Both the position numbers and the translations under genes were made by a program. The notes beneath the pieces are model-generated. The model saw only the letters and a list, made by a program, of their open reading frames with translations. It ran no database searches and was not told the origin of the DNA. Shown one piece after another: positions 14,502 to 23,301 of a DNA stretch of 64,000 nt (positions are counted from its first letter, which is position 1; each line of letters starts with the position of its first letter). This DNA is from Oscillospiraceae bacterium (GTDB lineage: Bacteria; Bacillota; Clostridia; Oscillospirales; Oscillospiraceae), in NCBI GenBank assembly GCA_017458065.1, contig JAFTGD010000065.1, positions 17,957-81,956 on the forward strand, in the 5' to 3' direction.

Positions 14502-17360
<2,859 letters not shown>

Positions 17361-17405
17361 TGTCATAATCCTTTCCACTTCATTAAAATCAAACTTAAAA
17401 TTTCT

Positions 17406-17434
17406 ATTTTAGGCCAAGGAATAATTTACCACAA
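17406..17434 (-). promoter_or_regulatory. candidate ppdK promoter
   Basis: The minus strand reads TTGTGG, a 17-nt spacer, then TAAAAT, about 45 nt upstream of ATG 17360. Confidence 0.4.
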
Positions 17435-17462
17435 AACAGGGGGAGGAATCAATGCATTTTCC

Positions 17463-18335
17463 TCACAAATCGACATTTCCAAAATTGCCAATTTCGTTGC
17501 TGATTCTTGCAAATTCCACAAGATTCAGCTTTTCACCCCGGATATTTGTGTCCAAATCGCAAAGTTTGAGAATTCTTTCACAGTCGGGTTTCGTAAGTCC
17601 GGGGACGGCGGCGCTCAGCGCGTTGACAAGCGTTTTGCGCCGCTGGTTGAAGGCGGCCCGGATGATGCGGAACATCAGCTCCTCATCCCGGACCTCCGCG
17701 GGCGGGGCCGGACGGCGCTGCAGACGGATCACCGCCGAGGTCACCTTCGGCTGGGGCATGAAGCAGTGCGGCGGCACTGTGAAGAGCAGCTCCGGCTCGC
17801 AGTACCACCGGACCAGCAGGCTGAAGGCGCCGTAGTCCTTCTTCCCCGGGGCGGCGCAGATCCGCTCGGCCACTTCTTTCTGGATCATGACGCAGATGCG
17901 GTCAAAGGCCTTCGTGCGGATCAGGGCTGTCAGCAGCGGGGTGGTAATGTTATAGGGGAGATTTGCGCAGACCAGCTTTGTGGGCAGGGTCAGCTTCTCG
18001 CGGATCAGGGCATCGAGGTCCAGCTTCATCACGTCGGCGAAGAGGATCTCGGTGTTGTCCCGGCCGGAGAGGGTCTCCTTCAAAAGGGGCTGAAGACTGC
18101 GGTCCAGCTCGACGGAGAGCACCTGTCCCGCCCGATCAGAGAGCTCGGCTGTGAGGCAGCCGATGCCGGGGCCGATCTCCAGCACGGCGCAGTCCCGGTC
18201 GGCCTGCACGCTATCGGCGATGCGGCGTGGGACAGAGGCGTCGATGAGGAAGTTCTGCCCCATGGATTTGGAAAAGCGAAACCCGTGTGCGTCCAGAAGA
18301 CGCCGGATCTCGCTCGGGTCGGTCAGATTGTTCAT
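17463..18335 (-). CDS. rsmA: 16S rRNA (adenine1518-N6/adenine1519-N6)-dimethyltransferase
   Basis: 290 aa with KSMGQNFLID, the SAM motif VLEIGPGIG and NLPYNITTP, all KsgA/RsmA hallmarks. Confidence 0.95.
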   Translation of the reverse strand: MNNLTDPSEIRRLLDAHGFRFSKSMGQNFLIDASVPRRIADSVQADRDCAVLEIGPGIGCLTAELSDRAGQVLSVELDRSLQPLLKETLSGRDNTEILFADVMKLDLDALIREKLTLPTKLVCANLPYNITTPLLTALIRTKAFDRICVMIQKEVAERICAAPGKKDYGAFSLLVRWYCEPELLFTVPPHCFMPQPKVTSAVIRLQRRPAPPAEVRDEELMFRIIRAAFNQRRKTLVNALSAAVPGLTKPDCERILKLCDLDTNIRGEKLNLVEFARISNEIGNFGNVDL

Positions 18336-18511
18336 CGGCTGCGAAGCCAGCGGAGCCAGTTGCCGACGACCGCCACAAGGGCCAGAGACACCAGAAGAAC
18401 GTTCATCTCGGTTTTCAGGCCGGTGCCGCGCGCGATCAGGACGATCGCAAAGACCGCGATCAGCGTCCAGAAGATGGCCATCACCAGAGTAAAAATACGG
18501 GTCCGTTTCAT
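18332..18511 (-). CDS. small two-TM membrane protein (59 aa)
   Basis: Hand-found and below the track cutoff: MKRTRIFTLVMAIFWTLIAVFAIVLIARGTGLKTEMNVLLVSLALVAVVGNWLRWLRSR. Its ATG overlaps the trmD stop (ATGA) and its stop overlaps the rsmA ATG (ATGA). Both overlaps argue for translational coupling. Confidence 0.6.
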   Translation of the reverse strand: MKRTRIFTLVMAIFWTLIAVFAIVLIARGTGLKTEMNVLLVSLALVAVVGNWLRWLRSR

Positions 18512-19812
18512 TGCTTTTTCTCCTTCAGCAGTTTCTCATAGCACTGTCGCGCCGGGTCATGGCCGGGCTCAGTGTCCAGGTCGGCGTTGCCGCGGTAGCG
18601 GTAGCCCGTCTCCCGCAGCAGGCGCAGGGCGGGTTTGTTCTTCCGGTGCGTGGCGGTGCGGATGCTGCGGCGCCCCAGGGCGCGGGTCCGGTCCTCGGCG
18701 AGGCGCAGCAGGGCCTCCGCGAGGCCGCTGCCCCGGTAGGCGGCGGCGACCGCCGCATGCCGCAGGACCGCATAAGAGGGGGGCTCGGACCACCTGCCGT
18801 CCCGGATGCCGTCGTAGCCGGGCTCGGGATTGACGCTCAGGGTGAAGAAAGCCGCCGTCTCGCCGCCATGCAGCACGAGGAAGCACTCCCCTGCCGCAAT
18901 CTCGCGGCGAAAGTCCTCCTCCGCGGGGTACGTGCCCTGCCACTGGTCGACGCCGTGGCGGGCGAGGCTCCGCCGTGCCTCCTCCCGGATCTGCAGGAGG
19001 CATGGGAGGTCCTCTTCCCCCGCCGGGCGGCAGGTGACGGGATCGGTCAGGCGCTTTTTCTTCTCCGCGCGGCGGAGCTCCTTCAGGAGGGCGCGGTCCT
19101 CGTCCGTCGCGGGCTCGAAGGCCCGGAACAGATCGGGGCGCTTGTCCCTCGTCCGCTCAAACTGCCTCAGGCGCCGCCAGCGCCCCACCTTCTCATGGTC
19201 GCCGTTTAAGAGCACTTCGGGTACCGCTCTCCCCTCCCAGGTCTCGGGCCGGGTGTACTGGGGGTACTCGAGCAGACCGTCCCAGTGGCTCTCGCCGATA
19301 TAACACTGCGGGTCGGACAGGACGCCCGGCACCAGCCGGCACACGGCGTCCGCCACCGCCATGGCGGCGATCTCGCCGCCGGTGAGCACAAAGTCGCCCA
19401 GGGAAATCTCCTCGTCGACGCAGGCCTCGATAAAGCGCTCGTCCACGCCCTCATAATGGCCGCAGACCAGCACCAGCTGGTCATAGTCCTGCCGGAGGCG
19501 TCTGGCGGTCGCCTGGGTGAAGGGCCTGCCCTGGGGCGAGAGATAGATTACCCGCCGGCGCAGATCCCCGCTCCCGGCCGTCGCAGCGTCGAGGCAGGCC
19601 TTCAGCGGCTGGGCCATCATGACGCAGCCGAAGCCGCCGCCGTAGGGATAGTCGTCCACCTGGCACTGGCGGTTCTCGGTATAATCGCGGATCTGCCAGC
19701 AGCGGATGTCGAGGATGCCCTTTCTGGCGGCGCGTCCAAGGATGCTCTCGTGCAGGACGGCGTCCACCGTCCCGGGGAAGAGCGTCAGGATATCGATACG
19801 CATCTCGGCCAT
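18508..19812 (-). CDS. trmD: tRNA (guanine37-N1)-methyltransferase fused to a C-terminal GNAT acetyltransferase domain
   Basis: 434 aa. Residues 1-~250 are TrmD (MRIDILTLFPG..., LSPQGRPF, LVCGHYEGVDERF, ISLGDFVLTGGE). Residues ~255-434 are a GNAT fold with acetyl-CoA motif A (YRGSGLAEALL). Confidence 0.9.
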   Translation of the reverse strand: MAEMRIDILTLFPGTVDAVLHESILGRAARKGILDIRCWQIRDYTENRQCQVDDYPYGGGFGCVMMAQPLKACLDAATAGSGDLRRRVIYLSPQGRPFTQATARRLRQDYDQLVLVCGHYEGVDERFIEACVDEEISLGDFVLTGGEIAAMAVADAVCRLVPGVLSDPQCYIGESHWDGLLEYPQYTRPETWEGRAVPEVLLNGDHEKVGRWRRLRQFERTRDKRPDLFRAFEPATDEDRALLKELRRAEKKKRLTDPVTCRPAGEEDLPCLLQIREEARRSLARHGVDQWQGTYPAEEDFRREIAAGECFLVLHGGETAAFFTLSVNPEPGYDGIRDGRWSEPPSYAVLRHAAVAAAYRGSGLAEALLRLAEDRTRALGRRSIRTATHRKNKPALRLLRETGYRYRGNADLDTEPGHDPARQCYEKLLKEKKQ

Positions 19813-19816
19813 GGCG

Positions 19817-20308
19817 TCACATACCCTCCAGCAGGCGCACCGTGACGACGCCTGCGTCCGCGTCGGCGCGGAGGATGAAGGCCGGGACCGCGGGGATCAG
19901 GATCTCGCGTCCGTCCGGGGCCTTCACCACGTACACGTCGCTCGCGGGACGCTCAAGGATCTCGGTCAGGGTGCCGACCTCGCTGCCGTCCTCCAGGACG
20001 ACGCGGGCCTCCAGCAGGTCCTGCAGGAAGTAGCCTCCCGGCGGGAGCATGGCGTCCTCCCGGGCAATGAAGACGGACTTGCCCTTGAGCTTCATGGCTT
20101 CGTTCACATCGGCGATGCCCTCCAGCGCCGCGATGACAAAGCGGTTCTGCGGGCGGGCCGAGAGCAGCCTCATCTCCGCACCGTCGACAAAGACGCGCGG
20201 GTACTCCGCCAGGGCGGCGGGGCTGTCCAGCCAGACCTCGATCTTCACTTCGCCGCGGACGCCGTGGGTGTTGGTGATGCGCCCCGCCTCGATATACGGC
20301 TGTTTCAT
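19817..20308 (-). CDS. rimM: ribosome maturation factor RimM
   Basis: MKQPYIEAGRITNTHGVRGEVKIEVWLDSP is the typical RimM N-terminus. ATG 20308 has a GGAGAG RBS. The longer track ORF (to 20389) would overlap the upstream gene. Confidence 0.9.
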   Translation of the reverse strand: MKQPYIEAGRITNTHGVRGEVKIEVWLDSPAALAEYPRVFVDGAEMRLLSARPQNRFVIAALEGIADVNEAMKLKGKSVFIAREDAMLPPGGYFLQDLLEARVVLEDGSEVGTLTEILERPASDVYVVKAPDGREILIPAVPAFILRADADAGVVTVRLLEGM

Positions 20309-20339
20309 GGGTGTTCCACTCTCCTCTGTCTGTGAGCTG

Positions 20340-21251
20340 TCATGCGCCGGTTCCGCTCTCCTGCGGACGGAGGGGCTCCACCCCGTCAAAGCCGGAGAGG
20401 GTCAGGCGCGCATCGACATACTGAAGCTCGCCTTCGAGATCCAGATCGTCCAGCTCATACTCCGTAAGCAGCCGCTCCAGTGCGCCGTCCATCAGCTCTC
20501 GGAGGAAGACGGCAAAGTCCATGTCCACCTGGACGAGCCTGTCGTCATCGTCAACCCAGAAGCTGACAGGGAGGCCCTGCAGGGCCTGCGCTTCCGCGGT
20601 CTCTCCAGCAGCGGAAGTCTCTTCTTCTGCTTCTCCGGTCTCTTCCCCCTCGGGGATGATGACGGCGGCTTCCGCTTCGTTGTCGGGGTCCGCGGTCTCC
20701 GGCCTCTCCAGGTCAAGCAGGACGAGCAGCTCCCCGACGAATTCGTCCGGGAGGATGCCGTCGTAACGCCTGGCATGGGCCCTGTTCACAAGGTCGTCGA
20801 CGGGGTCGGCGAAGTAATCGCCGCAGCGGGCGAGCAGCTTCAGGAGCTCGGCGCTGAGGGTATTCCGGTTCGTTTTCTTTTCCGGGATCAGCTCGCTCCC
20901 GGTATGTTCTTCATCCCAGGGATTGACGATCCAGCTTTCGCTGTTCTTCTGAATATCATAACGCAATTCGCGCTCGACGCCGAGGGTCTCCAGAAGGAGA
21001 TCGGTCCTGATGAGGAGCGGGGACGTCTCGGTATCAAAGCCGCCCGTCACGGTCGCTTCCATCCGAATCTTCTGCCCGCCGACGTCCAGCAGCGCGCCGA
21101 GATAAGCCTCCACATCGGTGTGGAAGCTCTCAAGCTTCGCCATGCGTCTGGCGGTCTTTGTCATCTGGGTCCGGAAAGCGCCGCAGCCGGAAAGCGCCAG
21201 GCACGAGGCCAGCGCCAGCAGCAGCGCGGCCGCTTTTCTCCAATGCTTCAT
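20340..21251 (-). CDS. putative lipoprotein of unknown function
   Basis: The ATG 21251 product starts MKHWRKAAALLLALASCLALSGCG, a signal peptide plus LSGC lipobox. It has an acidic Glu/Asp-rich linker in the middle. I recognise no family. Confidence 0.6.
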   Translation of the reverse strand: MKHWRKAAALLLALASCLALSGCGAFRTQMTKTARRMAKLESFHTDVEAYLGALLDVGGQKIRMEATVTGGFDTETSPLLIRTDLLLETLGVERELRYDIQKNSESWIVNPWDEEHTGSELIPEKKTNRNTLSAELLKLLARCGDYFADPVDDLVNRAHARRYDGILPDEFVGELLVLLDLERPETADPDNEAEAAVIIPEGEETGEAEEETSAAGETAEAQALQGLPVSFWVDDDDRLVQVDMDFAVFLRELMDGALERLLTEYELDDLDLEGELQYVDARLTLSGFDGVEPLRPQESGTGA

Positions 21252-21348
21252 TGCGTTTGTGTTCCTCCTCAGGATCTTCCGGATCGGCTTCGAAAAAAAA
21301 GGGAAGGACCTCTGCCGCTGCACAGAGCCGCGACGAGATCCTTTCCCC

Positions 21349-21579
21349 TCAGTCCAAAATCTCTACCGAGACTTTTTTACCCTTTCGCTGGGCGACGGCC
21401 CGCATCAGCACACGGATCTGCTTGACGATCCTGCCCTGCCGGCCTATGACCTTGCCCATGTCGCCGTCGGCCACGCGGACTTCAAGCACCGTCTCGCCGT
21501 CGACTTTGCGCTCGGTCACAGAGACCTCATCCGGATGATCTACAAGGCTCTGTACAATGTAGGTCAATAGCTCTTTCAT
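21349..21579 (-). CDS. KH-domain RNA-binding protein (YlqC family)
   Basis: 76 aa with GKVIGRQGRIVKQIR (GxxG KH motif), in the conserved position after rpsP. Confidence 0.9.
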   Translation of the reverse strand: MKELLTYIVQSLVDHPDEVSVTERKVDGETVLEVRVADGDMGKVIGRQGRIVKQIRVLMRAVAQRKGKKVSVEILD

Positions 21580-21593
21580 GGAAACTCCTTAAC

Positions 21594-21830
21594 TTATGCT
21601 TCGAGCTTTTTCATCAGGCCGCGTACGGTGTCCGTGGGCTGGGCGCCGTTGGAGATCCAGTACTGTACACGCTCGGTGTTGATCTTCAGCTTGTCGCTTT
21701 CAGCGGACGGGTTGTACACGCCGACTTCCTCGATGAAGCGGCCGTCGCGCGGGGCGCGGGAATCCGCCACAACAATACGATAGTAAGGGGCCTTCTTTGC
21801 ACCCATTCTGCGAAGTCTGATCTTAACCAT
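21594..21830 (-). CDS. rpsP: 30S ribosomal protein S16
   Basis: [41 protein letters not shown] is canonical bS16. Confidence 0.97.
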
Positions 21831-21933
21831 TCTATCTTCACCTCCAAATTAAAATATGCATAGAATAAAATATATCAGTCAGCGGCCCGCGCAGGATACG
21901 CGAGACCGGAAACTGCCACAGGGATTGCCCCGC

Positions 21934-23301
21934 TCAGAAGCGGAACCCGCCGCCGAGGCCGGGGAAGCCGCCGCCTGCGCGGCCCATCTTCTTCTGCAGC
22001 TTCTTCATGTTCTTGCCGGAGAGCTGCTTGACCATCTGCTGCATGGCGTCGTACTGCTTGAGCAGGCGGTTCACATCCACAACCGAAGTCCCGGAGCCCG
22101 CCGCGATGCGCTTTTTGCGGGAGGAGTTCAGCATCGCGGGATTCTGCCGCTCGGCCTTGGTCATGGAGAGGATGATCGCCTCCTGGCGGGAGAGCAGCTT
22201 CTCGTCCATTTTGGCGCCTTTCAGGGCCTTGGCGTCCATGCCCGGGATCAGCCCGGCAATATCGCCCAGGTCGCCCATGCCCCGCAGCTGGTTCATCTGG
22301 TCCAGATAGTCCGTCAGGGTGAAGCGGTTGGAGAGCAGCTTTTCCGCCGCCTCCTGGGCCTTCTTCTCGTCAAAGCTCTGCTCAGCCTTCTCGATCAGGG
22401 TGAGCACGTCGCCCATGCCGAGGATGCGGGATGCCATGCGGTCGGGATGGAAAGGCTCGATCATGTCGAGCTTCTCGCCAGTGCCGATAAACTTGATCGG
22501 CTTTCCGGTGGCGGCGCGGATCGAGAGCGCGGCGCCGCCTCGCGCGTCGCCGTCGAGCTTGGTGAGCATGACGCCCGTGACGCCCAGCGCCTCGTCGAAG
22601 GCTGTGGCGGCGTTCACCGCATCCTGGCCGGTCATGGCGTCGACCACGAGAAGGATCTCGGCCGGCTCGACCGCGTCGCGGATCTGCTGCAGCTCGGCCA
22701 TCAGGGCCTCGTCAATATGCAGACGGCCCGCGGTGTCAAGGAAGACGAGGTCGTTGCCGTGCTTTTTGGCATGCTCGATGGCGGCCCTGGCAATGTCGAC
22801 AGGATTCGTCGTGCCCATCTGGAAGACCGGGATATCCAGCTGTGCGCCGACCGTCTCCAGCTGCTTGATGGCGGCGGGACGGTAGATATCGCAGGCGACC
22901 AGCAGCGGGCGCTTGCCCTGCTTGCGCATATAGCCGGCGAGCTTGGCGCCGTTGGTGGTCTTGCCCGCGCCCTGCAGGCCGACCAGCATCACCACGGAGG
23001 GCGTCTTCGACGAGATGCTGAGCTTCTGGTTCTCGCCGCCCATGAGGCTGCAGAGCTCCTCGTTGACGATCTTGATGACCATCTGGGCCGGGGAGAGGGC
23101 CTCCAGCACCTCGGCGCCGCTGGCGCGCTCGGTCACGGTCTTCGTAAAGTCCTTGACGACCTTGTAGCTGACGTCCGCCTCCAGAAGGGCGAGACGGACC
23201 TCGCGCATGGCTTCTTTGATGTCGGCAGGGGTCAGACGCCCTTTGCCGCGCAGCCGCTTGAAGGCCGCGGTCAACTTGTCGGATAAGCTCTCAAACGCCA
23301 T
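21934..23301 (-). CDS. ffh: signal recognition particle protein Ffh
   Basis: 455 aa with the NG domain (GLQGAGKTT, DTAGR) and a Met-rich M domain with a GGGF tail. Confidence 0.97.
   Translation of the reverse strand: MAFESLSDKLTAAFKRLRGKGRLTPADIKEAMREVRLALLEADVSYKVVKDFTKTVTERASGAEVLEALSPAQMVIKIVNEELCSLMGGENQKLSISSKTPSVVMLVGLQGAGKTTNGAKLAGYMRKQGKRPLLVACDIYRPAAIKQLETVGAQLDIPVFQMGTTNPVDIARAAIEHAKKHGNDLVFLDTAGRLHIDEALMAELQQIRDAVEPAEILLVVDAMTGQDAVNAATAFDEALGVTGVMLTKLDGDARGGAALSIRAATGKPIKFIGTGEKLDMIEPFHPDRMASRILGMGDVLTLIEKAEQSFDEKKAQEAAEKLLSNRFTLTDYLDQMNQLRGMGDLGDIAGLIPGMDAKALKGAKMDEKLLSRQEAIILSMTKAERQNPAMLNSSRKKRIAAGSGTSVVDVNRLLKQYDAMQQMVKQLSGKNMKKLQKKMGRAGGGFPGLGGGFRF

Follow-up and report, generated by a model that had tools for sequence, protein, structure and literature searches.

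The window, by which we mean the whole 64,000-nucleotide (nt) stretch of Oscillospiraceae DNA analysed here, encodes on its minus strand the tRNA methyltransferase TrmD in a reading frame that continues into an acetyltransferase domain of the GNAT family. The first-pass annotation, made from the letters alone, had described this gene (trmD::GNAT) as a trmD open reading frame (ORF) of 434 codons within a ribosome-biogenesis operon, with TrmD giving way to the GNAT domain from residue 255 and with an acetyl-CoA motif A in the added part. In these respects it holds up. The 434-codon frame contains zero internal stops, and the quoted strings are all found in its translation: ...DEDRALLKELRRAEKKKR ending at residue 254, AAYRGSGLAEALLRLAE at 357-373 and RLLRETGYRY at 397-406. 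Residue 255 corresponds to nt 19050, the domain boundaries match ours, and motif A is intact. A search with profile hidden Markov models (HMMs) for tRNA_m1G_MT and Acetyltransf placed both Pfam domains above cutoff in one frame, and the covalent TrmD-GNAT protein is indeed encoded inside an ffh-rpsP-KH-rimM-trmD unit. The protein is a genuine, old and conserved two-domain fusion. The architecture is already present in public databases under the label "TrmD", an annotation that hides the second domain, and we found no paper describing TrmD-GNAT fusions or a fused acetyltransferase domain of TrmD.

We considered whether a stop codon or frameshift between two separate genes had been lost in sequencing or assembly. 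Logan contigs from three samples besides the probable source sample span positions 19030-19080, where a check of the junction had been proposed; none contains an indel or a joint, and over 1.5 kb they differ from the window at one position only, 18863, where one run has T for C. The GNAT part, used as a query against 5.8 billion proteins, returned 406 protein clusters. Among the best 120 of these, nearly all are 423-474 amino acids (aa) long with PF01746 plus PF00583, and a few are shorter fragments; the same protein of ~430 aa thus comes from several hundred independent assemblies. Finally, we scanned one genome per species (GTDB) and obtained 279 relatives, of which the best 80 loci were inspected. 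The TrmD and GNAT matches share a frame with no stop between them in 80/80 of these species-representative loci. Together, the cross-sample contigs, the independent protein clusters and the in-frame species loci rule out an assembly artefact, whose remaining probability we regard as negligible.

The TrmD module appears complete. Pfam tRNA_m1G_MT (PF01746) matched residues 26-226 with 190.7 bits, covering model positions 2-195 of 195, and both NCBIfam TrmD equivalogs scored above their cutoffs (NF000648, 297.8 bits against 220; TIGR00088, 282.4 bits against 195). Residues 3-247 align with residues 8-249 of Haemophilus influenzae TrmD (PDB 4ypw; 231 bits), and by this alignment and the PF01746 coverage both the SPOUT domain and the C-terminal tRNA-binding domain are present in full. 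The conserved residues R159, D133 and E121 correspond to R154, D128 and E116 in Escherichia coli and H. influenzae numbering. E174 occupies the position of D169, the catalytic Asp and general base of TrmD. Glu is found at this position in 14/14 TrmDs examined from the bacterial family, fused or free. TrmD is essential in bacteria and an antibiotic target, and the m1G37 modification guards against +1 frameshifting. Because trmD::GNAT is the only PF01746 match in a 96%-complete genome, the fusion protein must supply this essential function; together with the family-wide Glu, this makes it likely, judging from sequence, that the TrmD module is active in m1G37 formation.

The C-terminal part is a well-defined GNAT domain. 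Acetyltransf_1 (PF00583) matched residues 294-404, scoring 44.3 bits when the whole protein was searched and 47.5 bits when only the C-terminal 180 aa were (cutoff 20.7). An AlphaFold2 (AF2) model of the domain alone had a mean predicted local distance difference test score (pLDDT) of 96.9 and a predicted template-modelling score (pTM) of 0.91, with motif A (R360-G-S-G363-L-A365) placed between strand 347-355 and helix 364-378. An alignment of 25 fused proteins shows no variation at G361 or G363 and at least 90% conservation of R360; D289, W291, Q292, H315, Y333, D338, G339, W341, R385, H389, N392 and R405-N409 are also invariant. We infer that the GNAT domain binds acetyl-CoA and transfers acetyl to an acceptor.

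The domain falls within a large family of free-standing GNATs, ~170-175 aa long and mostly 30-42% identical to it; a search of 1.84 billion representatives found 907 such clusters at E below 1e-10. The family signature residues are at least 90% conserved over fused and free-standing members pooled, which suggests that the two share an acceptor type. A fold search of the PDB with Foldseek gave at least 500 GNAT matches. The best was 2pc1, with template-modelling (TM) scores of 0.84/0.90 and a root-mean-square deviation of 1.5 Å, and phmmer matched the same entry by sequence at E 1.4e-14, followed by 3h4q (1.9e-9) and 2fia (2.9e-6). These are structural-genomics entries without an assigned substrate, so the match names no substrate, and our search for literature on the function of the 2pc1 family found no paper. 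Database names of the free-standing relatives and the ESM Atlas offered nothing beyond "GNAT family N-acetyltransferase", and no NCBIfam equivalog fits the GNAT part. The closest characterised GNAT, which the first-pass annotation had suggested seeking, is SbzI, matched by structure at ~20% identity.

Several better-known GNAT groups were tried and rejected. The RimI model TIGR01575 gave 17.9-20.5 bits against a cutoff of 86.4, and a true RimI (118.7 bits) is encoded on another contig of the genome; structural similarity to RimI, RimJ, RimL and SpeG is at the generic GNAT level (TM 0.61-0.68). RNA cytidine acetyltransferases of the TmcA/NAT10 type require a helicase-type ATPase and a dedicated tRNA-binding domain. 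Pfam found only tRNA_m1G_MT and GNAT-clan families in the window protein, with no helicase-type ATPase or tRNA-binding partner domain. Among resistance acetylases (sat3 NF000359, sat2 NF000358 and AAC(3); cutoffs 300-420), the best score was 25-27 bits for sat3 against its cutoff of 360. A GNAT toxin of the TacT/AtaT/ItaT kind was set aside on context, namely rimM and rsmA as neighbours in 80/80 loci and fusion to an essential enzyme; no toxin-specific HMM was run.

AF2 modelling of the whole protein from a 98-row alignment gave a mean pLDDT of 85.9 and a pTM of 0.57, which indicates two well-folded domains without a predicted fixed mutual orientation. The last TrmD helix spans residues 237-250 and the first GNAT strand residues 259-263, and region 228-262 is the least conserved stretch of the whole protein in the alignment of fused proteins. 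A predicted complex of two TrmD modules with the GNAT domain scored 0.02 against a mark of 0.32, a result that we counted neither way.

Table 1. Coordinates of trmD::GNAT and its neighbours in the window, and of related loci in other genomes (given as locus:positions)
Feature	Coordinates	Strand	Details
Whole trmD::GNAT ORF	18508..19812	-	434 codons plus stop at 18508-18510; both Pfam domains in the same frame
TrmD module, residues 1-250	19063..19812	-	SPOUT catalytic domain and C-terminal helical tRNA-binding domain
Basic linker, residues ~251-258 (KKKRLTDP)	19039..19062	-	AF2 secondary structure; alignment of fused proteins
GNAT acetyltransferase domain, 2pc1 type, residues 259-430	18523..19038	-	PF00583, AF2, Foldseek, phmmer
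Putative acetyl-CoA pyrophosphate-binding motif A, Y359-R-G-S-G-L-A365	18718..18738	-	R/Q-x-x-G-x-G/A
rimM	19817..20389	-	Directly upstream; stop 4 nt before the trmD::GNAT ATG
rsmA/ksgA	17463..18335	-	16S rRNA A1518/A1519 dimethyltransferase; conserved downstream neighbour of the fusion
Diverged fused locus	L028:2325-3521	-	
Diverged fused locus	L029:2808-4004	+	
Diverged fused locus	L030:2815-4080	-	
Diverged fused locus	L032:2567-3778	+	
TrmD-M29 fusion	L033:494-2455	-	
TrmD-M29 fusion	L034:2817-4805	+	
TrmD-M29 fusion	L035:2465-4453	+	
TrmD with extra ~150-aa domain	L025:2579-3775	+	
TrmD with extra ~150-aa domain	L026:2330-3469	-	
Fumble/type-II-pantothenate-kinase-like gene, split operon	L018:1962-2801	-	265-280 aa
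Fumble/type-II-pantothenate-kinase-like gene, split operon	L045:1869-2666		265-280 aa
Fumble/type-II-pantothenate-kinase-like gene, split operon	L046:3202-4035		265-280 aa
Fumble/type-II-pantothenate-kinase-like gene, split operon	L053:3139-3972		265-280 aa

The phylogenetic distribution of the fusion, another check that had been proposed, turned out to be narrow. Across 300 genomes of the order it is confined to the window's family, Oscillospiraceae; other families hold free-standing relatives of 28-39% identity, and at four such loci that we checked there is no trmD or rsmA within 1.5 kb. Within the family (201 genomes from 134 genera), a fused GNAT in an open frame of at least 386 aa continuous with TrmD is present in 36 genomes, where its identity to the query ranges from 56% down to 34%, and 149/201 genomes gave no match to this GNAT subfamily at E 1e-15. 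The 80 fused loci come from records of uncultured Oscillospiraceae, Ruminococcaceae and Candidatus Limivicinus metagenome-assembled genomes, with sources in the rumen or gut of goat, sheep, deer, yak, horse and rabbit and in human stool.

Gene order around the fusion, (ffh, rpsP, KH), rimM, trmD::GNAT, rsmA, (ppdK), is the same in 80/80 loci. In the window, a gap of 172 nt (18336-18507) separates the trmD::GNAT stop from the rsmA start. The corresponding gap is 3-15 nt in ~29 related loci and ~130-240 nt in most others. A promoter and terminator scan of 17300-22000 found no minus-strand site between rpsP and rsmA, including the 172-nt gap, which is weakly consistent with a single transcription unit from rpsP to rsmA. 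A 327-aa ORF, 20340-21323 (-), separates the KH gene from rimM. By tblastn, 11/80 related fused loci have it in the same position, which marks it as an insertion specific to the lineage and no oddity of the present assembly. On the opposite strand, a 1339-codon open frame, 14814-18833 (+), overlaps ppdK, rsmA and the 3' end of trmD::GNAT in antisense orientation; high GC content and opposite-strand codon bias most likely account for it, and it is probably not a gene.

The best-scoring free-standing GNATs point to how the fusion may have arisen. They (P0134, P0140, P0271 and the 192-aa GNAT of G156, at locus L018) are encoded in units of the order rpsP, KH, rimM, trmD, a gene resembling Fumble and type II pantothenate kinase (PanK-II), GNAT, rsmA and proB, with 3-nt gaps or overlaps. 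Since these closest free-standing relatives share the trmD-rsmA operon, the fusion seems to have joined two genes that were operon neighbours: on sequence evidence, trmD most likely merged with a GNAT gene that already stood between it and rsmA. On this view the fused clade lost its trmD stop codon, and its PanK-like gene was lost or moved. Loci with trmD, the PanK-like gene and rsmA but without a GNAT also occur (L017 and L019), and the PanK-II/Fumble-like gene was not found in the window's 96%-complete genome with the L018 protein as query. The split operons pair a gene of CoA-biosynthesis type with a GNAT of an acetyl-CoA-using family.

In a tree of GNAT domains, the fused domains lie on one side, and the branch to the free-standing clade has a support of 87 in the Shimodaira-Hasegawa-like approximate likelihood-ratio test (SH-aLRT). 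Fused genomes have TrmD domains 71-77% identical to that of the query, versus 59-70% in the remainder; this difference is consistent with a fusion of single origin that was inherited vertically.

Pairwise Nei-Gojobori estimates of the ratio of nonsynonymous to synonymous substitution (dN/dS) were 0.15-0.44 for the GNAT domain, 0.08-0.21 for TrmD and 0.29-0.67 for the linker; dS is near saturation and the values are rough. They suggest that the GNAT is constrained, though less than TrmD. All family signatures and motif A are intact in the window protein. In four diverged fused lineages (G183, G080, G095 and G124), motif A, D-Q-W and D-T-H have been lost while the fusion is retained, and their C-terminal domains keep D-G-K-W and Y-R-G-N-L. 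This loss of motifs suggests that catalysis is dispensable in some lineages, where the fused C-terminal domain is possibly a pseudo-enzyme. G095 also encodes an intact free-standing GNAT of 176 aa directly downstream of its fusion, before rsmA.

Fusion to a GNAT is one of several C-terminal extensions of TrmD. The genomes G021, G164 and G048, from the same family, encode TrmD in frame with a complete Peptidase_M29 aminopeptidase (fusion length 654-662 aa; Pfam 532 bits), a second and unrelated C-terminal fusion; in G071 the trmD and M29 genes are adjacent but separate (split form, L020:1681-3658 (-)). The TrmDs of G013 and G143 (399 and 380 aa) bear an extra C-terminal domain of ~150 aa. A sub-threshold Acetyltransf_3 match occurs in one of these extra domains, and hhalign of the GNAT profile against them found no similarity (probability below 5%). 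Database-wide, a query with E. coli TrmD residues 1-220 gave 3955 clusters in which the TrmD-containing protein exceeds 385 aa; RimM-TrmD, TrmD-L19, TrmD-Tm1570 and TrmD-NUDIX proteins are among the 120 matches listed, with no GNAT fusion among them. TrmD-Tm1570 was the only studied TrmD fusion that we found in the literature. TrmD thus commonly fuses with adjacent genes, and a fusion alone is weak evidence of shared chemistry. The ESM Atlas contains at least 30 clusters, of at least 50 members each, that combine TrmD with Acetyltransf_1. Many are from Actinomycetota, and these carry an Acetyltransf_10 signature, versus Acetyltransf_7 in the window protein.

Our preferred interpretation, to which we give a little over even chances, is that trmD::GNAT encodes two independently acting modules joined through the fusion of operon neighbours, with the GNAT acting on the acceptor of its free-standing relatives. 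Like free-standing TrmD, the TrmD module would dimerise and use S-adenosylmethionine to form m1G37 on tRNA, and a short, flexible, basic linker would tether to it a complete GNAT of the 2pc1 type. The GNAT would use its intact motif A to bind acetyl-CoA and would transfer the acetyl group to an amine acceptor, in a pocket whose lining residues are common to the free-standing relatives (D/Q-W-Q, Y333, D-G-x-W and D-T-H-x-x-N); the acceptor would most likely be that of the free-standing family members. The main effects of fusion would be obligatory co-expression and 1:1 stoichiometry within a ribosome-biogenesis operon, with no new reaction at G37. We infer both catalytic activities, the independence of the modules and the route of origin from sequence comparison and modelling.

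Several points weigh against this interpretation. The GNAT tree leaves the sister group of the fused clade unsettled, with many open forks, and the proposed origin route is accordingly plausible, not proven. In two fused genomes (L011 and L014) the order is trmD::GNAT, PanK-like, rsmA, which requires a rearrangement relative to trmD, PanK-like, GNAT. Should the TrmD-GNAT clusters of the Atlas prove to be separate fusion events, a chance merger of neighbours would be less probable. The position of the GNAT between trmD and rsmA, in split and fused form, fits a translation-linked target equally well, and the fused GNATs are shifted modestly to the basic side (median isoelectric point 8.15, vs 6.08 for free-standing ones).

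The last two points lead to the alternative that survives best, in which the GNAT is a functionally coupled modifier. It would acetylate a component of translation (a 30S or 50S ribosomal protein, in the manner of RimJ or RimL, an assembly factor, tRNA or aminoacyl-tRNA), to which it would be delivered by the TrmD dimer or through co-expression with rimM and rsmA. The first-pass annotation had leaned this way, taking the covalent link to suggest a second modification of tRNA or of a ribosomal protein. In favour of that idea, the nearest free-standing relatives of the GNAT are likewise encoded between trmD and rsmA in the same operon. The basic linker and C-terminal tail and the presence of TrmD plus GNAT architectures in many Atlas clusters from two phyla favour coupling as well. 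On the whole, our results do not support a second modification, though they do not refute it. No RimI/J/L, TmcA or resistance model matched, the similarity to RimI, RimJ and RimL is generic (TM as above, 14-19% identity), the genome has a real RimI at another locus, and the helicase/ATPase module of RNA cytidine acetyltransferases is absent. The signature residues are common to free-standing relatives, many of which, outside this lineage, sit in unrelated neighbourhoods. No fixed orientation of the domains is predicted, and TrmD fuses with many operon neighbours. The absence of a subfamily GNAT at E 1e-15 from most genomes of the family argues that the function is accessory, and the decay of its motifs in some fused lineages also speaks against coupling. 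We consider a coupled modifier less likely than not.

A more specific proposal, which we think distinctly unlikely, is that TrmD serves as a tRNA-docking platform from which the fused enzyme acetylates tRNA, the amino acid of an aminoacyl-tRNA or a ribosomal component met during maturation. Were it true, the fusions of Bacillota and Actinomycetota, with their different GNAT subfamilies, would represent convergent coupling of m1G37 to an acetyl-CoA step, and a previously unknown link would run from central carbon status to reading-frame maintenance.

The GNAT could instead have a regulatory role, adjusting m1G37 output to the metabolic state either by sensing acetyl-CoA or by acetylating lysines on TrmD itself (or on RsmA or RimM). 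Its 1:1 covalent tether to an essential enzyme and the conservation of the acetyl-CoA motif would suit such a role. Relatives unlinked to trmD keep the same acceptor-pocket residues, though, and the AF2 model predicts no fixed interdomain arrangement, which leaves regulation improbable. Still less credit is due to an inert passenger, kept for folding or solubility or as a decaying remnant. The four lineages that lost motif A, D-Q-W and D-T-H while keeping the domain fused are what such a passenger would look like, and the GNAT evolves 2-3 times faster than TrmD. Against this stand the intact signatures and motif A of the window protein and the main fused clade, including the invariant G361 and G363 in 25 proteins, dN/dS values well below 1 and a very confidently predicted fold.

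A clade of abundant, uncultured rumen and gut Oscillospiraceae, with at least 80 species representatives and including Candidatus Limivicinus, makes its TrmD solely as a GNAT fusion. If the GNAT acts on tRNA or the ribosome, this would be a new modification pathway; if it is independent, the protein would be a clean example of operon-neighbour fusion and a handle on the function of the 2pc1/3h4q/2fia family.

Compared with known systems, the TrmD part is closest to canonical TrmD (4ypw, 3axz and 1uaj), with which it shares a full-length module and an operon position after rimM. It differs from canonical TrmD in the added C-terminal GNAT of 180 aa and in Glu174 for Asp169, which is typical of the lineage, and the fusion is followed by rsmA instead of the rplS of canonical trmD operons. 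The GNAT part belongs by sequence to the same subfamily as 2pc1 (Streptococcus agalactiae 2603), 3h4q (Staphylococcus aureus) and 2fia (Enterococcus faecalis), and in the case of 2pc1 also by fold. It shares the D-Q-W-Q and T-H-x-K-N signatures with 2pc1, though at only ~27% identity, and all three are free-standing proteins of 160-200 aa. RimI, RimJ and RimL resemble the window GNAT in fold, in motif A and, through its genomic context, in a link to ribosome biogenesis, but the sequence identity of their structures to it is low. Enzymes of the TmcA/NAT10 type likewise tie a GNAT covalently to an RNA-binding or RNA-modifying module, with a different GNAT subfamily. A studied parallel to the architecture is the double-knotted TrmD-Tm1570 fusion of Calditerrivibrio nitroreducens (~436 aa; PDB 8b1n; PMC11187310; bioRxiv 10.1101/2023.03.13.532328), in which a second catalytic domain is added at the TrmD C-terminus as in the window protein. 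There the partner is a second SPOUT methyltransferase (PF09936) within a compact homodimer, whereas the window protein carries a GNAT for which no fixed packing is predicted.

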